A DNA stretch of 64,000 bases from Leucoraja ocellata (Eukaryota): contig JAWMAR010001182.1 in the NCBI GenBank assembly GCA_036785375.1, positions 248,001 through 312,000 on the forward strand, read 5' to 3'. The notes under the pieces were generated by a model that had not been told where the DNA came from, searched no databases, and saw nothing but the letters and a program-made list of their open reading frames with translations. Position numbers and translations under genes: made by a program. Position 1 is the first letter of the stretch, and each line of letters opens with the position of its first letter. Below are positions 888 through 50,659 of this stretch, piece by piece.

Positions 888-1191
888 TATCGCATAGCAC
901 ATATGTACAGGGCGGAATCGGAGAACACGCCGTCACGTATCACGAACTCGCCCGTCTTTGTAGTTGTATTGAATGTAGCAGATATCGATCTGTGATGCCC
1001 TTCTGCCCCTGTATACGTTATATCCTATAACCTGAATCAGGTACTGCGGAGAATGTCCAAGGCACTGCTTGTACCAGTAAACAAATGGGAGGGAATCGCT
1101 GGTTTTCAGCAGGCACTTGAGTGTTACATCCGTTCCCTCTGCAACGCGGTTTCTGCTTCGGTCTGTTCCACCGCATTTTGATGGCTCCAGT
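888..1191 (-). pseudogene. TCR alpha/delta-type V segment V1, V exon (frameshifted)
   Basis: After acceptor ttctcttAG the minus strand reads DWSHQNAVEQTEAET, then (shifted) VAEGTDVTLKCLLKTSDSLPFVYWYKQCLGHSPQYLIQ, then (shifted) SATFNTTTKTGEFVIRDGVFSDSALYICAMR. Ig-V Cys23, Trp41 and DSAxYxC motifs are present; a 23-RSS follows directly. At least 2 frameshifts. Confidence 0.88.
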
Positions 1192-1446
1192 CTAAGAGAA
1201 AATAGAAATTGTCAGAATCACCATGATTGAAGCGGCAGCTGCATTATCTTTACATCGGCAGAAATCAGGTGACAACATTCGTGGGAAGACAGGATTTTTA
1301 CTGGGTGAAAATCCTTACTGAGAAGAGACATGAGAACAAAGATCGGGAGGCGGTGCTCGCACATAATTGGCACGATTCTGTAAGTAAACAATCCTTGAAA
1401 CGCACGTCGGACCAAATATGCTAACTGTAGAACCAGCTAACTCAAC

Positions 1447-4645: not shown

Positions 4646-4715
4646 ATGCACGCGCCAGGAAATGCACCAATCTTTGCCGTTTACTACACTACTCTTGCGG
4701 CGTTTGGGTTGCCAG
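4646..4715 (+). CDS. GPR139-like GPCR gene 1, exon 1
   Basis: MHAPGNAPIFAVYYTTLAAFGLP + G|GTAAAT phase-1 donor; near-identical in structure to gene 2 exon 1. Confidence 0.88.
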
Positions 4716-5572: not shown

Positions 5573-6094
5573 TAGGTTTTTATCTTGTGCCTCGATAGGT
5601 CATGGCAAATTTAGGCAACAATTCGGTAGGTCTATTATCACCAGAGAATGTTATTCATGTTTGTCATTGGTCACCTGAGTCAGGTACCACTGTTTGCTTT
5701 GGAATGTATGCATTTTCCTAATTTAATATTAATTACATGTTTTCTGCATTTCTTCCGTTCTAAACCATAAACATTTAAAACCAAATACTACTAAGTTAAG
5801 CTATGTGGCAACGTTTCCATTCGGTGTGGTCATTTTAACTGATAAACGGGTCAGGCAGTGTCTATGAAGGACGTGGAGGGGCGAACGTTTCCTGTCAGGA
5901 CTCTTCTTTCATCTGATTGTCGGCGGAAGAGGAAGCTGAAAAAGAGATGGGGGGGCAAAAAGCCTCGCGAGTATTATTTTTCAACCACAGCAAATTTCAC
6001 CAGGACCGCATTTCGTTTCTACGTTCCGATAAAAACTGGCGACGCGGCCGGAATTATGATGAATAACTCCATCGTATTTCTGTTTGTTTCACAG

Positions 6095-7001
6095 CCAATA
6101 TGGTGACGATCGTGATTCTCTCCCAGGGAAGATGCGGCCTTTCCAAATGCATTACTCGCTACCTGGTGTCCATGGCGTTGATGGATCTCCTGGTCATTCT
6201 CGCAGCCGTGATATTGACCCGGCTGCGGCCAATTTATTTCCCGCTTAGTTTCTTGGCAACAAATCCCGCCTGCAGTGTCGTTATTGCAGTCAGCTGGGCT
6301 TGCAAAGACACCTCCGTCTGGCTAACTGTCGCGTTCACCTTCGATCGGTTCATCGCCATTTGCTGCCAGCGACTGAAACACGGTTATTGTACGGAGAAAA
6401 CGGCGGCTGCAGTTATTGGAGTAATCTGCGCCCTTGTCTGTTTCAAAAACATACCGCTCTACTTTTGTTTATGAGCCCGTGTATATTATCGATAAGGTGC
6501 CCTGGTATTGCAGCATAAAATAAATCTATTATACTTCAACTTCCTGGCGAGTTTATGACTGGCTGCATCGTATATTAAACCCATGTCTCCCTTTCCTTCT
6601 GATTTTGTTCCTTAACGCTGTGACAGTGAGACACATCTTGGCGGCCAGTGGAGCCCGCAAGAGGCTCCGGGCCCAGAGCAATGGAGACAACCAGAGAGAT
6701 CCAGAGATGGAGAGCAGGAGGAAGTCCATCATTTTACTCTTCGCCATCTCGGGTAGTTTCCTGTTGCTTGCGCCTGACGTTCGTTGTCAACTTCCTGTTT
6801 GTGCAGTTTTCGAGCAACAACTATGCCAACAGTTCAAATTCCACTGACCCGAGCTTTATTCTTCAAGAAAGCGGATATATGCTAGAGCTTCTCAGTTCCT
6901 GCACCAATTCGTGCATTTATGCGGGGACGCAGACCAAATTCAGAGAGCAGTTGAAAAATGCGGTCACATACCCCTTCAACTTGATTAAGAAAATCAAGTA
7001 A
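6095..7001 (+). pseudogene. GPR139-like GPCR gene 1, exon 2 (two +1 frameshifts; pseudogene or assembly error)
   Basis: Acceptor tttcacAG|CC AAT ATG; (A)NMVTIVILSQGRCGLSKCITRYL...FTFDRF...PCLPF...SSCTNSCIY...KIK*. Single extra T at ~6463-6470 and ~6768-6770; no in-frame stops once corrected; AATAAA at ~7057. Confidence 0.88.
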
Positions 7002-12352: not shown

Positions 12353-13260
12353 CTATTTGAACCGTTTGCGAATTAGATAGAAAGGATACTTAACCACTTC
12401 CTGCAGCTGCTCTCTAAACTTAGTCTGTGTCCCCCCGTAAATGCACGAGTTGGTGCAAGAACTTAGTATCTCCAGCATGTATCCGCTTTCTTGGAGAATA
12501 AACCTGGGGTCGTTGGAATTGGAACGGGTTGCATAACCGCTGCTTGTAATTTGCACAAAGAGGAAGTTTGCGACGTAGGTCAATCGCAACAGCATAAAAC
12601 TGCCCGAGATCGCCATGAGTAGAATGATCGACTTCCGCCGACTCTCCATTTCCGGGTCACTTTGTTTTCCACCGTTGGTCTGGGCCCGGAGCCTCTTGCG
12701 GGCTGCGCTGGCAGCTAGAATGTGTCTGACCGTCACAACATTGAGCAACAGAATTAGTAGGAACGGGAGGCATGGGTTCAAAACGCGGTGTAGACAATCG
12801 TACACTATCCATGCAATTGAAGTGTAGTATGAATCTTTTATGGTGCAGAACCAGGGTATATTATCAATTATGTAGACTGGCTCATATATAAAATAAAATG
12901 GGGCGTTCTTCAAACAGCCTAACGCGCAGACCGTTGCAATAACACCCGCCGCGATTTTCTCAGTGCAATATATTAGTTTCAGTTTCTGACAGCAAATGGC
13001 GATGAACCGATCGAACGTGAAAGCGACCGTCAACCAGACGGAAGCGTCTTTTGAAATCCAGCTGAGGACAATAAGGACCTTGCAGGTCGGAATGGTAGAC
13101 AGGACTGTGTTCGGGAAATAAATAGCCCGAAGCCGGCTTAAGATCACGGCGGTGATGATGACCAGGAAGTCCATCACCGCCATGGATACCAGGTAGCGAG
13201 TGATACATTTGGAGAGGCCGCATCTTCCTTTGGATAGAATCGCAATCGTCACCAAATTCG
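12353..13260 (-). CDS. GPR139-like GPCR gene 2, exon 2 (intact 7TM)
   Basis: Acceptor ttctgcAG|CG AAT TTG; 300-aa open frame with SKGRCGLSKCITRYL, FTFDRF, TM5 PCLPF and TM7 SSCTNSCIY. Confidence 0.93.
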
Positions 13261-13294
13261 CTGCAGAACAGAGGGAGAGACCGGGATATTAATA

Positions 13295-16447: not shown

Positions 16448-16517
16448 CTGGAACGCCGAAAGCAGCAAGGGCAGAATAATAAATGGCGAAGACAGGTCCA
16501 TTCCCAGGCGCGTGCAT
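16448..16517 (-). CDS. GPR139-like GPCR gene 2, exon 1
   Basis: MHAPGNGPVFAIYYSALAAFGVP + G|GTGAAG phase-1 donor, in frame with exon 2; TATA-like AATATAA at ~16580. Confidence 0.88.
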
Positions 16518-18052: not shown

Positions 18053-18268
18053 AATAATATAATAATCTTATTTATATAGCACATTTTTAGTCAACATGCA
18101 TTGCCCCCAAAGTGCTTCACATAATTACATTACATTTACACACAGGCAAAGTGGGTGAAGTGTCTTGCCCCAAGGACACAACGACAGTATGCACTCCAAG
18201 CGGATTCGAACCGGCTACATTCCGGTCGCCAGCCGAACACTTAGCCCATTGCGCCATCTGTCGTCCCA
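18053..18268 (-). mobile_element. tRNA-derived CORE-type SINE
   Basis: Minus strand A box TGGCGCAATGG, B box GGTTCGAATCC, CORE-like gtgtccttggggcaagacactt, (ATT)n tail. Confidence 0.8.
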
Positions 18269-25175: not shown

Positions 25176-25333
25176 NNNNNNNNNNNNNNNNNNNNNNNNN
25201 NNNNNNNNNNNNNNNNNNNNNNNNNNNNNNNNNNNNNNNNNNNNNNNNNNNNNNNNNNNNNNNNNNNNNNNNNNNNNNNNNNNNNNNNNNNNNNNNNNNN
25301 NNNNNNNNNNNNNNNNNNNNNNNNNNNNNNNNN
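25176..25333. other. Assembly gap (158 N)
   Basis: Run of N. Confidence 1.
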
Positions 25334-28453: not shown

Positions 28454-29367
28454 TCACTGACAGACTTTAGCTCGGATGGGTTTCGTCGATTTTGTAATGA
28501 GAATGCATGGGAGTTTGAATGCCTGGAGCAGTTGTTTTCTGAACTTCCTCTGGGTTATGGTGTAAATAGCCGTGTTTGTGCAGGTGCTGAACAGCTGGAG
28601 TAGAATAGCAACTTTGTGGAGCAATGGGAAACTGTTACTCGACGATACGCGATGAGGTGATGGTATAATATGATTGTAAATAAAATCTGCGATTGTTGTC
28701 GCCCAGAGGAGGATAAAACTAGTAGTGATTGCAAGGAGTAAAATAATGGACTGCCTGCGGTTCGCTGTCTCCGGGTCCGCGCTGCTCAGTTCCCGGAGGT
28801 TCCTGCGGATCCAAATGGCCTGTAAAATGCATCTGATAGTGAGGGTGTTAAAGGAGAAAATCATACAGAACGGAATGCCTGGGGTTAACAATTGGTCGGC
28901 CACAGAAAACGCCACCCATCCGGTCAGAGTATAAACATGCGGCGAACGGAGGCAGCCTTGTTGACCAACGGAAGATGTTAAATACCCGATGTACGCGAAG
29001 GGCCATGGGATGTTCTTTACAGAGAAGAGCGCGGTCAATGTCCCTACAACCACCACCGCGGTTCTCCCGGTGCAGTACCTGGTTCTCATATTCAGGGTGG
29101 AAATGGCTACAAAGCGGTCAAACGTGAACGCCACGGTAAACCAGACGGAACAGTCTACAGCCACGGCCGCCATGAAGATAATGGACTTGCACACCGGAGT
29201 GTAGAACAAGAATGTGTGCCTCCAATAGATTCCGGCAACCAGCTCTAACAGCACCTTGCCTATGATCGTCGAGAGGTCCGCCGTAGCCATGGCCACCAGG
29301 TAACGGGTGATGCATTTGGAGAGGCCGCACTTTCCACGACACAGGATCACAATGGTAACCAGGTTCA
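28454..29367 (-). CDS. GPR139-like GPCR gene 3, exon 2 (intact 7TM)
   Basis: Acceptor ttctcccAG|TG AAC CTG; open frame (V)NLVTIVILCRGKCGLSKCITRYL...FTFDRF...LLWAT...STCTNTAIY. Confidence 0.93.
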
Positions 29368-29747
29368 CTGGGAGAAAAGAAAAAAAATAATGACGTTCAA
29401 TTGCATGATAAATTTATGACATAAAATGAGCTGTGGAAGTGTATTGTACAATTACACTGTTGCCTTTTTAGCCGTATCGGTGGCCCCCTGTCAATGGCCC
29501 CATTGGCTCGGCTATGCGCCTGATCCCACAGCCAAACATGCTTCATCTCAACAACTCGTTCACCGACGTCTCTGACGTGAGGAAGTACGGCATACCTGCT
29601 AAAGTTCTGATGCAGTTGTGCAATTCGTCGGCGAGAAATCACCCGGAGAACTACGGGGAGGATGCCATTAGCGTTGGAAAAAGTGCGAAGGTGATTTCCC
29701 AATATCTTACTGGAACTGCGGTCTTGAATGGTAGCGAGAGGTCGGTT

Positions 29748-31875: not shown

Positions 31876-32659
31876 GTTTCAGATTTCCGTCTTCTTGGTC
31901 GTAACTGTGGTCTATCCTGTACGTAACTGGACGCGGGCAGATCATGAGCCAAGTGAAACACGCTGGTGTATTTATACTCTAAATAATACACAGTAGAATT
32001 AAATGGAAAATTAGACCACTTCCCCCGAGCATCGCGAATGAGTCTTGGCAAAAACAATATTTCGTTCCCCAGTGATGGTGAGCAATCAATGTAAGGTCCT
32101 CTGCACATTACGCGTACACCAGCTGAGCACTTTCTGCAACAAAATATGAAACAGTTACAATTTACATTATGGTGATATATAAGACCGCAGGTGCTGACAT
32201 TTGAGGAAAACACAAAATGGTTGTCAACCACTTTCGACCATTAGGGAGACTGACAAATACCTCCAGGAACCGCACGGAAACCTTGCGTGGGGCACAACGT
32301 ATCAGAGGGTTTTGGTCAGGTTTCCTAAGTGGGACAGGGGCACACGGGAAGGGTGGTGAGGGGAGGTATTGTTTTCTGCCACCGACCAGAGGTTTCCGCA
32401 GGGTCCGAGTGAAGTTAGCCACTTTTCACGTTACTTATTTAGTTTTCTGGATGTTGGTATTGAAACAACTCGCGTCGTTTGAAGCTTGCTTTGTTTCTCG
32501 GGTTCACCAGGATGCAGTGGCTGATAAGTACATCCGAGGTTTCTCAGGTTTCCTGTCAATGTGTGTATGAGCACCGGTCGGCGCTCTCCACATGGCGGCC
32601 ACATTGGGCCCTTGAACCCATGCGAGACCCAGAAAGGAGAGGAAAGGCTCACCGCAGGC

Positions 32660-32698
32660 AGTTTTTGCATTACGAAGAGACTGCTTTCGATCATTGTG
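32660..32698 (-). promoter_or_regulatory. 23-RSS of V2
   Basis: CACAATG + 23 nt + GCAAAAACT. Confidence 0.9.
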
Positions 32699-33010
32699 GA
32701 ACTCAGGGCGCAGTAATACACAGCTGAGTCTGTCAGCTGGAGACCCCAAATAGTTAAATGCACAATCGAAGTCGCAGTCTGGAGATCCGCAGAGAAACGG
32801 TTCTCTAATATGTCTCCCCGTTCTTCCTGTTGGTCCCAAGACTGTTTCAGCACGATCATCTCAGGATTCTCCGCCGCAATTTGGCGGTACCAATATAAAC
32901 AATAGGCGGAATGCTGTAGTATTGTAGGTACAGGTTAGTTTCACCAAATCATCTTTTCTCTGTCTCAGTGAAGACTGGCTCTGAGTGATCGGAATCCCCA
33001 GCGCCCTGCC
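32699..33010 (-). pseudogene. TCR alpha/delta-type V segment V2, V exon (two +1 indels; pseudogene or assembly error)
   Basis: GQGAGDS/ITQSQSSLRQRKDDLVKLTCTYNTTA/SAYCLYWYRQIAAENPEMIVLKQSWD...RFSADLQTATSIVHLTIWGLQLTDSAVYYCALS. Confidence 0.92.
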
Positions 33011-33182
33011 CTGTGAAATGGATTCCGGGTCAAAAAACGGCCGTTAGACGGTGGAAGGGAACAAATGGAACGTTTCGACAAACACACTTTTACACAACAT
33101 TGTATTAGAATGCATCAGTTGCGAAGGGCTACATGGAACAAAGAAACGGACACCACAGTAACAAGCCGGTCTGCCCACAATC

Positions 33183-33498
33183 TTCCAGAACAAGGGGTCA
33201 CAGTTTAAGGATAAGGGGGAAATCTTTGAGGACTGAGATGAGAAAAATATTTTTCACACAGCGAGTGGTGAATCTATGAATTTTCTGCCACAGATTGTAG
33301 TTGAGGCCAGTTCATTGGCTATATTTAAGAGGGAGTTAGATGTGGCCCTTGTGGCTAAAGGAATCAGGGGGTATGGAGAGAAGGCAGGTACAGGATACTG
33401 AGTTGGATGATCAGCCATGATCATATTGAATGGCGGTGCAGGCTCGAAGGGCCGAAAGGCCTACTCCTGCCACCTATTTTCTATGTTTATATGTTTCT
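33183..33498 (+). mobile_element. CR1/HER1 3' fragment in V2 intron
   Basis: Family tail; apparent TSD ACAATCT. Confidence 0.88.
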
Positions 33499-34138
33499 AC
33501 AATCTCTGTGCCAAACATGATGCCAAGATGAACTAAACGTATCTCCTCCTGCACATTGCCGATATCTCTCCTGATCGTGTATATCCTTGTGTTTATCTAA
33601 AAGCCTCTTAAAAGGCCACTGTCATATCGGTTCTATCACCATGTTCGGCAGCATGTCCCAGGCATTACCGCTCTCTCCGTAAATAACTCGCACGTTTCGT
33701 TCGATGTTTTGCCCATTTCACCTTTAAGTTAGGCCATCTACTCTCTAATATTTCCACCTTAAGAAACACAAAACCTTTCACTTTGCCGTCAGAATATTCA
33801 CTTTCACCGCAGTTCATGTACATCCACCAGGTCTCAGCCTCTAACAATCCACGGAAAACAAGCCAACTCTGCCCCGACTCTTCTGAAAGCTAGCACCCTC
33901 TAATGCAAGTAGTATTCTGGCAATGAAGCTGGCGACACTCTATCTTCGGTTTAAACCAGCATCTGCAGATCCTTCCTGGTAACCCTAGTATGCATCCTAT
34001 CCAAAATCTTCATGCTCTTCCTTAAATAAGACGGTGGGATCTGTAAGCAACGCTACACATGCGCCTAACCAATGTCCTTTAACGCTGCACCGCCATAGAT
34101 GTTTCTACACTGTGTCCATTTTCTACAATGTTTCCATG

Positions 34139-34649
34139 GGAAGGACATCCTTGTGATTGAGGCAGTGCAGCGTAGGTTCACGAGATTGATCCCTGGGATG
34201 GCGGGACTGTCATATGAGGAAGGATTGAAAAGACTAGGCTTGTATTCACTGGAGTTTAGAAGGGTGAGGGGGTTTCTTCTAGAAAATCATACAATTATAA
34301 AAGGACTGGACAAGCTAAATGCAGGAAAAATAGTCCCTATGTTGGGCGAGTCCAGAACCAGGGGCCGCAGTCTCAGAATAAAGGGGAGGCCATTTAAGAC
34401 TGAGGTGAGAAAAACAGAGAGTTGTGAATTTATGGAATTCCCTGCCACAGAGGGCAGTGGAGGCCAAGTCACTGGATGGATTTAAGAGAGAGTTAGATAG
34501 AGTTCTAGGGGCTAGTGGAATCAAGGGATACGGGAGAAGGCAGGCACGGGTTATTGATAGGGGACGATCAGCCATGATCACAATGAATGGCGGTGCTGGG
34601 TCGAAGGGCCGAATGACCTCCTCCTGCACCCAATTTCTATGTTTCTATG
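34139..34649 (+). mobile_element. CR1 LINE 3' fragment in V2 intron
   Basis: KDILVIEAVQRRFTRLIPGM... plus tail. Confidence 0.9.
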
Positions 34650-35016
34650 TTGCTATGGTTCACATCACACATTGGTTGTCATGGGGATTGGAGCCAGCAA
34701 AGTCTCGGTACACGACCATGGCAGACAGCAGATTGAAGTATCTGCTACGAATAAAACACAATGTCGCACATGTTAACCCTCCTGCCATAACTCATCTTCC
34801 AGACTGGAGTGCCCAGCAAGTACAGACTGCTGAAAACAGACTGCACTCGAGGCTTCCAGGGCGGTTAGGAGCCACATTCGCCAGGTCGATTGTGAACACT
34901 AATCCCTGACCCCTCGGAAATTTCACGAACATTGTGAATATTAAAGACAATCTCAAGAACACGTGGATAACAAAATTATCTTCCGTTCACGTCACGGTTG
35001 GCTTGAAGGTACTTAC

Positions 35017-35059
35017 CTAATAAGCATGAACTGAAGATGAAAGTAAGCAGCATGTCCAT
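35017..35059 (-). CDS. Leader exon of V2
   Basis: MDMLLTFIFSSCLL + G|GTAAGT, 43 bp, phase 1. Confidence 0.85.
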
Positions 35060-36464
35060 CTTTCCTTTAAGGGAGCAGACAGCTGGCTTGGCCGAAAGTT
35101 GCGTCCTGCACTGCTCTGATCGAATTGGAGCTGCGCTGATACAACTTCGACAGTAGGTTGACACGCCAGCGCCTCTACTTCCATAGAGGTTTTAAGAGAT
35201 CCTGCATTCACCGAATCTCCCACTAAATATCGACGCACTGCAGAAACTATCCTGACTGCTTACTCATATGGCATTTCTAACGCACAGAAACGCAATAAAC
35301 TACATAGGGATGGAATCAACACACTTCGTCTCAGGCAAGTAATTCCTTCTCCCCATCTACGTCGCCCCAACAGCCATCCGGGCGTGCCCATTTCTAGACT
35401 CTGAAACGCGACACTCCCCACGACCCTACCATTCGCCGGGGATGTCCTGCCGTGTTTGACTTCCCAAAATGCAACACCTCTCACTTATCATCATTAAAAT
35501 TCATCAACCATTGCTCTGCCTATTTGTTGAACTCCTTCTGCAGTTGTACAGGGCCCTAGTGAGACCACACCTGCAATATTATTGTGTGCTGTTCTGTTCC
35601 CCTAATTTGAGGAAGGACATTCGTGCCATTGAGGAAGCAGCGTAGGTTTGCAAGGTTATTTCCCGGGATGGCGGGACTGTTATATGCTGAGAGAATGGAG
35701 CAGCTGGGCTTGTACACTCTGCAGTTTCGAAGGATGAGTCCGCGGGAAGTGCGCACGTCAGTACGGCCTCAATGCGGCTGCGGGCCGGCGGGCAGTTGCC
35801 GCGCGGAATCTTTGTACAAGGTCAGTTTTTCGGAGCCCAGCGCGATGTCGGGACCAGCTCCGCACAACTCATACGGCTCCGGCGATCGAAGTGGGACCAG
35901 CCCCGCGTGGCCGTACGGCTCAAGCGACCACGTTAGGTCGCGCTTGCCGCATGGGGTCGCATGCACGTGGGACAGCCTTAAGTCGCCCACTCCGCATAGT
36001 CAGAAAACAACGAACAATCAGCGATGAGAGGGATTTCATGAAGCATTAATACTATGCAGTTCATGGCTGCCTCATTTTAAAGTAACGATGTATTTCATTC
36101 TGGCACAGGGCAGTGGAAGCTTGATTGATCTCACGTCTAATTTCATATAGAAGAACAATGATATAAACACCATCAGCATTGAATGAACTAGATCATTGAT
36201 GATCATCCGAATTCAGACCTCATTTCCTGCTTCTTCCACATACCCCTTGATCTCGTTTTGCACAAGAAATTCGACCAATTCCATCGTGAATATAGTGAAA
36301 GGCATTTTGTTCTCGTTTCAACTCAATCCGTCTGGCTCCTATCCAAGGAATGACCCTTAGAAAGTTCTCGATCAGAAACGTCACCCATTCCTTCTCTCAA
36401 GAGACGCTGCCTGTCCCGTTGAGTTATTGCAGCATTTTGTGTCTAGCTTCGGTTTAAACCAGCA

Positions 36465-36832
36465 TAGAAACATAGAAACATAGAAATTAGGTGCAGGAGT
36501 AGGCCATTCGACCCCTCCAGCCTGCACCGCCATTCAATATGATCATGGCTGATCATCCAACTCAGTATCCCGTGCCTGCCTTCTCTCCATACCCTCTGAT
36601 CCCCTTAGCCACAAGGGCCACATCTAACTCCCTCTTAAATATAGCCAATGAACTGGCCTCGACTACCCTCTGCGGCAGAGAGTTCCAGAGATTCACCACT
36701 CTCTGCGTGAAAAACGTTCTTCTCATCTCGGTTAAAATGATTTCCCCCTTATCCTTAAGCTGGGACCCCTTGTCGTGGACTTCCCCCACATCGGGAGCAA
36801 TCTTCCTGCATCTAGCCTGTCCAACCCCTTAA
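36465..36832 (-). mobile_element. CR1/HER1 3' fragment nested in a Penelope-derived element
   Basis: Family tail; AGCAT is repeated at both junctions. Confidence 0.88.
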
Positions 36833-37858
36833 GCATCTGCAGTTCTTTGCTGCACATTTTGTCCCCGACACAATCTGGGCTCGAGTCCAACGTTGCATTG
36901 CAAACGATATTTCCCCGCTTAACTGAACGGAAACACCTGCGGATTCTGTGCAGAGATTAACGAGCGACCTCCTGTGGCTGATCGGAGATAGTGACTGCTA
37001 ACCCAAGGCTCCAATACCTTGCAAGATGCTGATATCTTCTACTGGCAACGCGCGCAGCAATTGAATACTTACAGCTAGTTCCGATTTAAACTTTAATTGC
37101 TAAAGCGCAACAAACTGCTGGCGAAACATAGCGACTTGGTGGCATCTCTGGAGAACATGGATGGGTTATGCCTTAGCTCCAGCAGCAATATAGATTGCAT
37201 ATGATCATATGATACATGCACAACCCTGCCCCAGAATGCTATACATAGATATAAGAATTACGGAATATCAGCAGTTTGAATGCATCGGGTAATACGCGCA
37301 GAGATAGGTCCCAAGAAACTAAAGTTTAACAAGGTCACAAGAGATAGGAGCAGAATTAGGCCATTCGGTCCATCACGTTTACTTCGCCATTCAACCAGGA
37401 TATATCTCTCCCTCCTAACCCCATTCTCCTGCCGCGCAGGAAACGGTTGAACAAGATAAGAGCCACTTGTATTGGAAGCTAGATACTAGTATCGATATTT
37501 GTTCGGTTGACTGACAGGAGGCAGAGTGAAGAAAGGGGGAGTGGGGGAGGGAGGGAGGGGGGGGGGGGGCTATGTTAATGCCACTGACCAGAGATTTCCG
37601 CAGCGTCGGACTTGAATGAGCAATTTTACACTTTATATTTTATTGTCTAGATCATGGAATTGAAACAAATCGCGTCGTTTGAAGTTTGCTTAGTTTCTTT
37701 GGTTCACCAGGATGCGGTGGCTGACAAGTATATCCGAGGTTTCCTGCCTGTGTGTGTGTGTGGCTGCGCACCTATTGGCGCTCTGCACATGGCTGCCCCA
37801 ATTGAGCTCTTGAACCCCTGGGAAACACAGACAATGACAAGAAAGGCTCACCACAGGC

Positions 37859-37897
37859 GGTTATTGCACTGCGCAGAGACTGCTTCCAATCACTGTG
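37859..37897 (-). promoter_or_regulatory. 23-RSS of V3
   Basis: Perfect heptamer CACAGTG + 23 nt + GCAATAACC. Confidence 0.92.
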
Positions 37898-38206
37898 GAA
37901 CTCAGGGCGCAGTAATACACTGCAGAGTCTGTCAGCTGGAGGCCCCAGATAGTTAAATGGACAAATGAAGTCGCTGTCTGGAGATCCATGGAGAACCGTT
38001 TCTCTAATATGTCTCCCGATGTTTCCCGATGGTCCCAAGATCGTATCATCACGATAAACTCAGGATTTTCCTCGGCAATTTGTCGATACCAATATAACAA
38101 TACGTGGATGCTGCAGTATTGTAGGTGCAGGTTAGTTTCACCAATTCACCTTTTCCGTGTCTCAGTAAAGACTCGGTCTGAGTGATCGAATCCCCGGCGC
38201 CCTGTC
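37898..38206 (-). pseudogene. TCR alpha/delta-type V segment V3, V exon (single 1-bp deletion; possibly functional if an assembly error)
   Basis: QGAGDSITQTESLLRHGKGELVKLTCTYNTAASTYC/LYWYRQIAEENPEFIVMIRSWD...RFSMDLQTATSFVHLTIWGLQLTDSAVYYCALS; paralog of V2. Confidence 0.92.
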
Positions 38207-38357
38207 CTGTGAAATAGATTCCGTGTCAAGAGAACAATAGTGGCCGTTAGACGATGGTTTCGTTTGACCGCCGAACAAATGCAACGTTTCGACATTCGGA
38301 CAAAATACACGTTTACATAATGTTACTCCGTGTTTCAGAAAACATCAGCTGCGAAGG

Positions 38358-45230: not shown

Positions 45231-46330
45231 CTACCTCTACCTGTATGCACATGTTGCCGCTGTGGCGCAGCAGGGAGACGGTACGGTGCGCCACTCCGAA
45301 CAGCAGCAGTTCTTGAAGTTCTTGAGACACCTCATCATTGCATTAACCAAAGGCCGGACGAGAGCGCCAGATTCATGCACGGAGTTGGAAAACTACGTGG
45401 GGGTGGTAAAGTACCGGCTATTTCCCATGACTGTCGTGTGTCGTCGTGCTGGGATGTCCTTGTTTAATCCGTTGGCTGGAAAAACACAAGAAAATACTTT
45501 GATACTCTTTCTCCCCTCTTCCAATGGGGTTCGGTTATAAGATTGTCGTCTGTTTAGGACGGAGAACTTTTGATGAAGGTAACTTACATCGAGGTAGAGT
45601 TTGGTCGCAGTCAGAGATTGAAACTACAAAGTTACAATTTGAACCCCGGAACAAGTTGCTGTGTTGCGGGAGACCAGCAGGAACGACCCGGGGCTCCAGC
45701 TGCGGAGCTGCCGACTACTCACCGTCACGGGGCTGGCCGAGTCAGGAGCGGGTGGAGCGGTGGTGGAGCGCTGCTGCCACCAGACCTTCGGAGATTCGGA
45801 GGCTCCAACTGCGGGTCTGGCGGATGGCGGCACCGGGAGCCCGCGGGTCCCTGCTGGGAGACCGCTTTTCGGGGCTTCCGCAACGGCGACTTCTCCCGCC
45901 CGAGTTGCGGGGTTGAAGAGCACCTGAGCGGGGCCTTACAGCATCGTCCGCGCGGCCTGGAATGGCCGCGGGACTTTGCGAGCGGACGCCGGGGGGCTCT
46001 AACAACTAGACCCGATGTGCGACCTTGCATCACCCGGCGTGGCTTTAATGGCCGCGGGGACAATCGCCATCGCCAGCAGGGGGCTTTGACTTTGACTCTG
46101 ACTCTGACATCGGGGGGGGGGGGGGGGGGGGGGGGGGGAGAGTGCAGTGGAGAGATAAGTTTGTTTGCCTTCCATCGCAGCGATGTTGTGTCTCGGGTCT
46201 TTTTTGTTTTTGTAATGTATGGCTGCAGAAACGACATTTCGTTTGGACCTCAAGGGGTCCAAATGACAAATAAATTGTATTGTATTGTTGCTATTTCATT
46301 GTTTGCGTATTTTCGTGCCAGTTGTGGAGT

Positions 46331-46344
46331 GCGCCATCTGGCGG
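46331..46344 (-). promoter_or_regulatory. Putative CTCF-binding element downstream of V4 nonamer
   Basis: Minus strand CCGCCAGATGGCGC, a near-consensus CTCF core, 24 bp beyond nonamer ACAAAAACA (46369-46377). Confidence 0.7.
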
Positions 46345-46368
46345 CTCCGTGCACAATTGCATGCGGTG

Positions 46369-47335
46369 TGTTTTTGTGCGTGTCCGCCATGTTTCTTCGG
46401 CAACGTGGCGGAGTCGGTAATCTCGCACGCGCGGATGATTAACCTAATAAGGTTTTTGCAGCCTTATTGTACGTGGAAGAGAATCGGACTGTGAGACCCC
46501 ATTTCTCTTTAGTATCCTTGCCGTAATCCGAAACAGGATCACTTGCTGCCGCCCACGTCGCTGTCTGTACCAATAAACATTCAGGATTGGCCCTGCCGTT
46601 CTAAAGGAGCATTCTAGCGCGATGGCATCTTCATAGCAAAAGGATTTGAGGATTTGAGTATAGGAGCATGGAGGTTCTACTGCAGTTGTACAGGGTCTTG
46701 GTGAGACCACACCTGGAGTATTGAGTACAGTTTTGGTCTCCAAATCTGAGGAAGGACATTATTGTCATAGAGGGAGTGCAGAGAAGGTTCACCAGACTGA
46801 TTCATGGGATGTCATGACTGTCTTATGAAGAAAGACTGGATAGACTTGGTTTATACTCTCTATAATTTAGGAGATTGAGAGGGGATCTTATAGAAACTTA
46901 CACAATTCTTAAGGGGTTGGACAGGCTAGATGCAGGAAGATTGTTTCCGGTGTTGGGGAAGTCCAGGACAAGGGGTCACAGCTTAAGGATAAGGGGAAAT
47001 CCTTTAAAACCGAGATGAGAATAACTTTTTTCACACAGAGAGTGGTGAATCTCTGGAACTCTCTGCCACAGAGGGTAGTCGAGGCCAGTTCATTGGATAT
47101 ATTTAAGAGGGAGTTAGATGTGGCCCTTGTGGCTAAGGGGATCAGAGGGTATGGAGAGAAGGCAGGTACAGGATACCGAGTTGGATGATCAGCCATGATC
47201 ATATTGAATGGCAATGCAGGCTCGAAGGGCCGAATGGCCTACTCCTGCACCTAATTTCTATGTTTCTATGTTCTATGTTAACTGCGAACGTCATTTCAGA
47301 GACCGACTGTGCCACCGAGTCCTGGATGCTCCAGT
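46369..47335 (-). pseudogene. TCR V segment V4 pseudogene (V1 family), split by a CR1 insertion and lacking YxC and the heptamer
   Basis: Acceptor ctgttAG|AC TGG; DWSIQDSVAQSVSEMTFAV [CR1 46632-47278] EDAIALECSFRTAGPILNVYWYRQ...RFSSTYNKAAK...LIIRACEITDSAT, then a deletion up to a residual nonamer. Confidence 0.85.
46632..47278 (+). mobile_element. CR1/HER1 LINE 3' fragment inserted in the V4 exon
   Basis: ORF2 C-terminus plus tail; removing it restores FAV-EDAIALEC in frame. Confidence 0.92.
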
Positions 47336-47502
47336 CTAACAGTAAACCATATGTCAGTTAAACATGTGTAGGAAGGAAGTGTAGATGCTGATTTAAACCG
47401 AAGATAGACACAACATCTGGATTAACTTAGCGGGACATGCAGCATCTCTGGAGATAAGGAATGGGTGACGTTCCGGGTCGAGATCCTTCTTATGAGTCTC
47501 GA

Positions 47503-48173: not shown

Positions 48174-48321
48174 GAAACGCCACACATTCCTTCTCTCCAG
48201 TAGCCCGTTTGTGTCCATATCAGTTACATAATTTCTTCAATCAACTCAATCACCCCTTTTTCCAATTTAATATGTGTGGTAACAAGATCCAATAAATAAT
48301 TTTGGAGACGGAAATACTAAC

Positions 48322-48367
48322 CGAGCAGCGATGTAACGACGAAGAACGGAGCGATGAATATCCGCAT
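48322..48367 (-). CDS. Leader exon of V4
   Basis: MRIFIAPFFVVTSLL + G|GTTAGT, 46 bp, phase 1. Confidence 0.75.
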
Positions 48368-48681
48368 GATGTTTCCGAGTCCACAGACCAGGAAACCCAC
48401 AGCCGGAGCACAAATGTTGGCGCTTCACCCCCCCCCCCCGGTCCCCGATGAATGGTCCAAATACGAGCAGCCACCCGCCGTAACAGCCCTTCGGGGTCAC
48501 AGGTCTGACAAAGCATTCAGACCTAGAGGATGTGATCTCGATGGTACAGCCACAACTGTTGACACTGAGCGGAATACGGGCTGTGTGAACGTGCGCAGCG
48601 CTGTTCTGCTGCGACCGGAGTTTGTCAAATGAAATAACGTGAGTGCATTGCGCTTGCTCACCGCGACGCGCCATTTTAAAA

Positions 48682-48908: not shown

Positions 48909-50659
48909 CTAATCCCACCGCGGGGCACGGACTTACCATCGGAGCGGATCCCATGCCTGGTATCGCTCCCACCGCGTCCACCGTGGACTTACCAACAAGG
49001 GATCGAAGTCTCGGGAGAGGCAGGTCGGGAGTTCTAACGCCGCAGAAGGTTCGTCCAGCCCCGAGGCGAGGTTCGATCGCCCGGCGCGGGGGAGGTGACC
49101 CCCCCACCCCCCCCCCCCCCCCCCCCCACCCCCCACCCCGATGCACGAGCTGAACGCCTCGCCGCCGGCTACGGGAGTTAAGACCGTCCCGTCAAAGGGG
49201 GCTCGAGACCCCCAACCAATGAAGAACAAAGGAAGACGCGAACTTTATTTCGCCTTCCATCACAGTGAGGAATGTGGAGGAGTCACTGTGGTGGACGTTC
49301 ATGTTAATTATGTTTTTGAACCTGTTGTTTTTAATTGTATGACTGACCTGGCCATTGAAAGTCCTCGTATGTTGCAAAACATACTTGGCGGGTAAAATCT
49401 GATTCTGATTCTGATTCGGAATTCTACTGTTGTAGGTTACTCTCTTCCAACGGTCTCATCCTGGCCACCGTTCTACTCTGCAGGAAGGAACTGCAAATGC
49501 TGGTTTACACCGAAGGTAGACACAAAATTTCGGAACAGGCAGCATCTTTGGAGAGAAGGAATGGGTAACGTTTCGTGTCGCCACCACCTCTTCCGTCTGG
49601 CCTGTTTAAAGCGTCACCTATTCCTTCTCTCCGGAGAAGCTGCATGCCCCGCTCAGATACTCCAGCATTTCGTGTTCATTTCCGATCTGCTGGGTTCATT
49701 CGATTTTTACAAATAGAACAATCCCACTATCACCCAGATTCGTTCCCAAACACACCTACCTCATCGGCTACATGCTTCTCCTAGCGCATTGCCACAGGGA
49801 TGATGGCATACTGGCGCATCTGCAAGAGCTGCTCTCTCATAGCACCGGATACCCGGGTTCGCAGCTGACATCGGGAGCTGCCTCTGAAGAGTTTGCACTT
49901 TCTCCCTGTGATCATGTGGGTTTCTCCGGGTGCTCCGGTATATTCCCACTTGCCAAAGATGTGCCGATTTGTATGTTATTCGTCCTCTGCAATTTGCAGC
50001 CAGCGTGCAGAGAGTGGATGAGTGAGTTCGGCTATAAATGTACTGTGGATGGGTGATAGAGGGGCATTGGAGATTCAGTGGGCCGAAGGGGCTCTTTCCA
50101 TGCTGCATCTCTAAACTAAACTAAACTAAACAACCCTTTCACGCATTCCCTCCCTCCATTGTTCCTCCTTGACAACATCCCTGCCTCACCTGTTTGAAGT
50201 AATCACCTTCCTTTCTTCTTAGGTTCCATCATCCAAGTCCTTTGATCTTTCCATTTATCACTCCCAATCCCTGGCGCAATCTCTACAATTCATTCCCTAA
50301 GTGGCCTCGATAGTATATGCCAAGGAACCCCGATTTAAAATTATACTCCGATCGCATGCGTTCTTGTCCGAAATCTACCTCTCACGCCGTTTTGCTGGCT
50401 AGCTCCATTCTACCAACCTCCTTTCTATTGCCTCCATCTACTTAAAGCTCGCGCGGCCTCGCCAGGGCTCGCAGCGTGATCAATGACGAGTTGCGCCGTG
50501 ACGACTCAATCTTCTCCCATTCCATCTGGAAAATGGAATAGAATTGTGAAAACGCACACCTCCAGATTCAGGGACAGTTTCTCCCCAGCTGTGATCAGGC
50601 AAAGTGATCGTCCTACCACAACCAGGGGGCAGTGCTGAACTACTATGTACTTCTTTAGT

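Follow-up and report, generated by a model that had tools for sequence, protein, structure and literature searches.

A CTCF-type core motif lies 24 bp beyond the nonamer of two V segments, V1 and V4, in the 64-kb window of skate DNA that was analysed (the whole stretch of 64,000 nucleotides). In both genes the motif has the orientation of V transcription, and the linker between nonamer and motif is conserved in length while its sequence has diverged. Probably, the motif is an element of the CTCF type associated with the recombination signal sequence (RSS), as predicted from its sequence, which V1 and V4 inherited from a common ancestor, the V4 copy being a relic of a gene that died recently. 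The interest lies in the design that V1 and V4 share, which brings a new lineage and a new receptor to a known kind of element. The retention of the site by a pseudogene is most likely unremarkable, V4 being a recently dead gene whose flanking signals have not yet been lost.

The RSS-coupled motif at V1 and V4

The window contains four V segments with 23-RSSs, all on the minus strand: V1, V2, V3 and V4. At V4 (RSS 46369-46407) the CTCF-type core CCGCCAGATGGCGC (46331-46344, minus strand) points in the direction of V transcription and shows one mismatch to the CTCF core IUPAC consensus CCASYAGRKGGCRS, which was taken from PMC6746451. Scored with a JASPAR-type CTCF weight matrix, it reaches 15.7 bits, rank 3 in the 64-kb window, and its 200-nt context has no second copy within the window. 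A linker of 24 bp (46345-46368, minus strand), shared with V1 in length and not in sequence, connects it to the nonamer ACAAAAACA (46369-46377, minus strand), which agrees at 8 of 9 positions with the consensus nonamer. The 23-bp spacer (46378-46400, minus strand) is intact according to an RSS scan and the alignment with V1. It is followed in register by the heptamer-like CACGTTG (46401-46407, minus strand), situated at the junction of a 24-nt deletion. This heptamer keeps its CAC, matches the consensus at 5/7 positions and V1's CACACTG likewise at 5/7, and lies exactly 23 bp from the nonamer; thus, an RSS-like signal persists at V4. The sequence-only reading had correctly described the motif, the nonamer, the 24-bp gap and the orientation shared with V1, all of which were confirmed by coordinates and strands, but had regarded the heptamer as lost.

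Eight nucleotides before the V4 core lies a candidate partial upstream (ZF9-11) CTCF motif, ATGCAATTGT (46353-46362, minus strand). The match to CTGCAGTTCC is weak (6/10, with the spacing of the IL3 insulator probe; P ~0.02 for a single position, three spacings having been tried), and an upstream ZF9-11 motif is absent at V1. The upstream motif and the IL3-insulator spacing are described in PMC12885311, the assignment of CTCF fingers to motifs in PMC10484683. The three other motifs of at least 12 bits in the window lie at 46070-46088 (plus strand, 15.8 bits, convergent to the V4 motif and ~240 bp downstream of it), 50616-50634 (plus strand, 15.9 bits) and 36962-36980 (minus strand, 13.0 bits), none of them with a second copy within the window. 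The contexts of the first two are similar to repeats common in skates.

V1 is a TCR alpha/delta-type V gene (888-1364, minus strand; leader 1319-1364, exon 888-1191) with a 23-RSS at 849-887, comprising the heptamer CACACTG (881-887) and the nonamer ACAAAATCC (849-857). On the same strand, 24 bp beyond the nonamer (linker 825-848), lies the CTCF-type core TCGCTAGAGGGCGC (811-824), which has two mismatches to the core consensus and scores 13.7 bits (rank 4). V1 matches the Pfam V-set model with E=2.2e-6 and is 70% identical in amino acids to its intact relative P0137; as assembled, it contains three frameshifts, possibly assembly errors, and is not a clean live comparator. V2 (32660-33010, minus strand, including its 23-RSS at 32660-32698) and its recent duplicate V3 (37859-38206, minus strand, 23-RSS at 37859-37897) lack any strong CTCF site out to 300 bp (the best scores being 6.3 and 7.0 bits, respectively), V2 serving as internal negative control. 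V1, V2 and V3 pass the Pfam V-set cut-off; the V4 fragment, with E=0.011, falls below it. The V2/V3 pair (32400-38350) is a recent tandem duplicate (79% identity over ~790 nt, 77% in amino acids) with an independent LINE fragment immediately upstream of each copy, and a clear leader exon was found for neither.

As judged from their sequences, V1 and V4 are of the TCR alpha/delta type and represent two distinct V families, V2 and V3 constituting a third. The assignment to this type follows from P0151, an intact V1 relative: its best single-domain PDB matches include TCR alpha/delta chains, antibody chains also ranking high. Besides this P0151-based affinity, a leader exon, a V-set exon with Cys23 and Trp41, and a 23-RSS were found. 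V1 and V4 share 36% of their amino acids (dN 0.47, dS 1.36, dN/dS ~0.34 over 74 aligned codons, with 46 first, 48 second and 36 third positions identical). Relatives came only from a full HMMER scan with the V1/V4 profile, which returned 271 matches, 150 of them listed; searching for homologues by word index had been fruitless both for V3 (2 candidates) and for the profile (15 candidates). Among the matches listed, the V1 family comprises six intact proteins, 46-70% identical to V1 and 33-41% to V4 in amino acids, and the 150 of 271 include no close intact relative of V4. In a tree V4 fell outside the V1 family, though this placement is weakly supported (88/92). Of the residues invariant in the V1 family V4 keeps 12/22, V1 22/24, and V2 and V3 15/25. 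Because V2 and V3 keep 15/25, the value for V4 fits family divergence, and is read as such here; it could also be older decay.

The rarity of the arrangement results from position and identity combined and not from alignment score alone. The window as a whole shows no enrichment of matches to the CTCF consensus (9 against 11.05 expected), and the score of a bare local alignment of the V1 and V4 flanks is unremarkable, being equalled by 114 of 1949 random window segments. Among 29 nonamer-like sites in the window, however, only those of V1 and V4 have a site of at least 8 bits within 5-60 nt, and both of these strong sites lie at offset 24. The V1/V4 alignment is gap-free from the heptamer through the motif, with identities of 5/7 in the heptamer, 10/23 in the spacer, 7/9 in the nonamer, 4/24 in the linker, 14/17 in the motif plus 3 nt and 11/30 in the next 30 nt. 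Two of the three differences between the motifs fall on degenerate consensus positions (Y5, K9). Compared with the linker plus the next 30 nt (15/54), the motif is significantly better conserved (Fisher p=1.2e-4). A gap-free flank background of 54/224, whose distal part may be misaligned, gives a binomial P of 7e-7; with background identity set to 0.45, P rises to 0.002, or 0.19 allowing 100 positions. The case is limited to two DNA examples, V1 and V4.

The sequence-only reading had proposed that motif and spacing were under selection, and had named the comparison of motif and flanks among paralogues and orthologues as a way to check this. In the V1/V4 pair the motif is indeed the more conserved (14/17 versus 15/54), and this across a split of dS ~1.36. 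Since the two genes belong to different families (36% amino acid identity), we conclude that motif and spacing were under selection. The strong divergence that had been noted around the motif is equally evident, with only 4/24 linker positions identical and a coding identity of 59% in nucleotides over the 74 aligned codons.

Protein relatives may add weak support for a core at offset 23-25. Three of the six V1-family proteins have tails that continue across the RSS to beyond the nonamer, and these tails were scored over synonymous codons against stop-free random window frames, of which 380, 132 and 33 of 5000 reach the respective scores. All three are CTCF-compatible at offset 23-25 (p=0.076, 0.027 and 0.007; combined 0.001), with the caveats that peptides leave the DNA unfixed, that the tails were first spotted by eye, that the proteins are related and that the nonamer placement in P0151 presumes a 24-nt spacer. 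The best CTCF-compatible offset is exactly 24 in P0231 and 15 in P0137.

A repeat origin of the motif was considered and rejected, the V1 and V4 contexts having no second copy in the window, a result with which a repeat family that is rare in this window would still be compatible. Two AGATGGCGC matches at 18251 and 26895 represent one repeat (95% identical over 118 nt) that is unrelated to the V motifs. A further 14/17 match (TCGT.TTTGG..CATTC) is located upstream of the V1 and V4 leaders at differing distances (~1505-1521 and ~48450-48466, minus strand), possibly a shared promoter element or chance.

Lesions and age of V4

The V4 leader exon (MRIFIAPFFVVTSLL; 48320-48367, minus strand) retains its ATG and GT donor. 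The V exon is interrupted: its 5' part (WSIQDSVAQ...; 47281-47337, minus strand) has an intact splice acceptor AG, its 3' part (Cys23, Trp41, FR3 to DSA; 46408-46632, minus strand) contains two small frameshifts, and between them a young, 5'-truncated LINE fragment (46633-47280, plus strand) sits antisense in FR1. The LINE and the loss of YxC had both been recognized in the sequence-only reading, and the latter could be traced to the 24-nt deletion relative to V1, which took out YxCAxx. V4 has neither Cys104 (YxC) nor an open frame, and the deletion and the LINE together make it a pseudogene. ATG, leader, GT, AG, Cys23, Trp41, spacer and nonamer are nevertheless kept, and the in-frame blocks contain no nonsense codon in 106 codons.

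From its sequence, the death of V4 looks recent. The inserted LINE is 96% identical to a copy at 51170-51792, adjoining which a frame matches RVT_1. It carries 11 private substitutions in 562 sites, i.e. 2.0% divergence from the majority base of the window copies, and no private indels in 606 covered sites; twelve other LINE copies in the window show 1.1-5.7% divergence. The CpG observed/expected ratio is 0.21 in the V4 LINE insert, compared with ~1 in those V exons, flanks and promoters that were examined.

Neutral decay was simulated forward from V4's present sequence, so the results are approximate, with a flat prior on d from 0.02 to 0.4 and 10 substitutions per indel (341:34); survival was defined as a motif of at least 12 bits plus the spacing. 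The neutral divergence of V4 was estimated at a mean d of 0.04-0.07 with a 95% upper bound of 0.08-0.15. Under these conditions motif and spacing survive with a probability of 0.48-0.66 (0.47-0.66 in a stricter run with a CpG factor), falling to 0.08 at d=0.25. The probability of having no stop and keeping ATG, Cys, Trp, GT and AG is 0.10 at d=0.10 and 0.017 at d=0.20. V4 is unlikely to be an old decayed copy of the V1 family, which requires d ~0.25, where the intact hallmarks have P=0.007.

As assembled, V1 has three frameshifts, V2 two, V3 one and V4 two; they were handled both as real and as consensus errors. Across the V1-V4 exons and 6440-6790 ten small coding indels were counted, mostly in base runs, and the in-frame blocks examined around them contain no nonsense codons. 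These small coding indels are probable consensus errors, which would give live genes the appearance of dead ones. Despite two +1 run expansions, a GPCR gene at 6070-6998 is 96-97% identical to the intact P0003 of Amblyraja, and between V2 and V3, in spite of their frameshifts, 13 of 64 codons differ synonymously and 12 non-synonymously. On the contrary side, the three other GPCR genes are free of frameshifts, and the LINE copies show 34 indels in 9218 sites. Another copy inside the window exists for 46% of its length, and an N gap is located near 25180-25330. Interspersed among the TCR V segments, on both strands, are four rhodopsin-family 7TM genes that resemble GPR139 and belong to a large expansion in elasmobranchs (6070-6998, plus; 12353-13288, minus; 28454-29413, minus; 63053-63997, plus), with upstream exons near 4646-4711 (plus) and 16452-16517 (minus). 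The best named matches of the gene at 12353-13288 are 'probable GPR139' of Amblyraja and Leucoraja (75-76%).

Alternative explanations for the retained site

It is unlikely that the conserved 17-mer binds a different factor, such as YY1, or has persisted by chance since a common ancestor. AGATGGCG does resemble the YY1 core, CTCF-like matches are no commoner in the window than in shuffles, and the alignment score is matched by those 114 of 1949 random segments, with n=2. However, in V1 AGAGGGCG breaks the YY1-type ATGG core and fits the CTCF K position, no stretch 3' of the nonamer is better conserved than the 17-mer, which is also the one that scores as CTCF in V1 and V4 alike, and its orientation and fixed spacing agree with the known VH class. 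The sequence-only reading went further and suggested that the pseudogene may persist as an architectural element of the locus, which would mean that the CTCF site is still selected as a loop anchor or insulator after V4's death. We judge this to be quite unlikely, although the V4 site outscores that of V1 (15.7 versus 13.7 bits), is accompanied by the partial upstream motif (6/10), a type linked to insulators, and faces the convergent 15.8-bit motif ~240 bp downstream (46070-46088). A site kept beside a dead V is, moreover, atypical, because mouse non-functional VH genes typically lack one (PMC6746451, PMC7930373). Set against this are the neutral survival of 0.48-0.66, still 0.08 even at d=0.25, and the other now-useless signals of V4, which are as intact as the motif; besides, a 14-bp site under selection would not require a V exon. 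According to PMC7930373, repair of a mouse VH pseudogene site turned that gene into the most rearranged VH, so a live site may be costly next to a dead V whose RSS can still be used. As far as the sequence goes, nothing in the data examined points to selection after V4's death, and the architectural proposal is not borne out.

It appears very unlikely that the death of V4 is confined to this haplotype (a polymorphic LINE or deletion) or results from mis-assembly, with functional alleles keeping the unit under ordinary selection. Single-base indels in the window resemble consensus errors (GPCR 6070-6998 versus P0003; V2 versus V3), but V4 has suffered two large lesions independently of each other, one being the LINE and the other the 24-nt deletion, and the 2% private substitutions of the LINE are too many for a fresh insertion, while private indels are absent from its 606 covered sites. 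Very unlikely, too, is an origin of the 24-nt deletion as a germline RAG cut-and-reseal scar. The RAG cut site falls within the deletion or directly at its edge (46401-46408), a placement expected in ~7% of cases by chance. A germline scar is conceivable because RAG-like germline joining is described for shark Ig genes (PMC2193156, in passages that do not mention open-and-shut joints) and because RSS-associated CTCF sites remain bound in non-lymphoid mouse cells. Slippage between the CAC of the Ala-Thr codons and the CAC of the heptamer explains the V4 junction at least as simply. V4, with CAC, 23 bp and nonamer in register, could still act as a recombination decoy.

Proposed role and comparison with known systems

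We favor an inherited RSS-associated CTCF element, the most likely function of which, by analogy, would be to raise RAG access to the RSS of its own V. Extrapolating from mouse Igh, CTCF bound 3' of the nonamer would stall cohesin loop extrusion and/or open the RSS, and RAG at a distant D/J recombination centre would then meet this RSS more often. Such a gain would have held motif and spacing under selection while V4 encoded a working receptor chain. Selection on the motif is fully accounted for by the long time that V4 was a working gene (dN/dS ~0.34): the split is old and coding constraint covers most of it, and a conserved motif is therefore expected if it served working genes. V4 would then have died recently, through the 24-nt YxC deletion and the insertion of the young LINE, and its motif would still be present because too little time has passed since. 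The V4 site may still bind CTCF, and the residual CAC-23-nonamer may draw unproductive rearrangements. With respect to the skate machinery, oriented CTCF motifs at TAD borders and the presence of cohesin genes are documented in PMC10115646.

More tentatively, and with considerable doubt, the RSS-coupled CTCF site might be an ancestral device of jawed vertebrates, already fixed at the TCR alpha/delta V genes of cartilaginous fish and kept by mammals mainly at IgH; on this same reading, stalling of loop extrusion at the RSS for V usage would predate the split of sharks and bony vertebrates. Such an arrangement at two divergent TCR V families in a cartilaginous fish would place CTCF-guided V choice at the base of jawed vertebrates, or else point to convergence. 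In the literature consulted, RSS-adjacent CTCF sites are described for mouse and human IgH, and the abundance of CTCF sites also for rabbit and chimpanzee. A search of a literature collection with few subscription journals listed no report of CTCF at RSSs in sharks or skates.

Among cartilaginous fish, the TCR alpha/delta V families of the nurse shark resemble the skate genes in having a leader plus V exon, a 23-RSS and several divergent families (PMC5931798); when that study was made, the germline locus of the nurse shark was not yet complete. The RSS scan identified no D, J or C segments in the window. Mouse Tcra/Tcrd and Tcrb belong to the same receptor class, and most of their CTCF sites face J-C (129 of 144 in Tcra/d; PMC5859386); in contrast to the skate sites, those of Tcra/d lie mostly upstream of V promoters or between genes (Table 2 therein), and Tcrb has only 2 CTCF sites near an RSS.

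The closest counterparts are CTCF sites that accompany the RSSs of Igh VH genes in mouse and human (Ciccone et al. 2019, PMC6746451), and active 'A-state' VH genes of clans II/III are linked to such sites by Bolland et al. 2016 (PMC4914699). Mutation of the site of VH81X lowers its use, and repair of a pseudogene's site makes that gene dominant, effects that PMC7930373 explains by a stall in the RAG scanning which loop extrusion drives. The same source provides a parallel to V4 in mouse VH7183.1pg.1 (VH5-1), a V pseudogene with an RSS-adjacent CTCF site; there the site is the damaged part, whereas V4 has an undamaged site and a disrupted coding exon. Like the VH class, the skate sites place a CTCF core 3' of the nonamer in the orientation of V transcription, conserve the length of the linker and not its sequence (24 bp, 4/24 identical, n=2), and occur in some V families while missing in others. 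Unlike that class, they belong to TCR alpha/delta-type genes and not to IgH; their 24 bp to the generic core corresponds to 22 in the register of PMC6746451, where mouse has 17-19 and human 19 or 48; and they deviate from the sub-consensus by 6 mismatches for mVH and 4 for hVH (counted by hand; the limit is 2). In addition, the V4 site, a predicted one, is retained beside a pseudogene. VH sites are typically found at functional genes and absent from non-functional ones; of the two skate genes with a site, V4 is dead, and V1 may be live if its frameshifts are errors. By analogy, the skate sites would work like the VH RSS-associated class while standing outside its strict definition.
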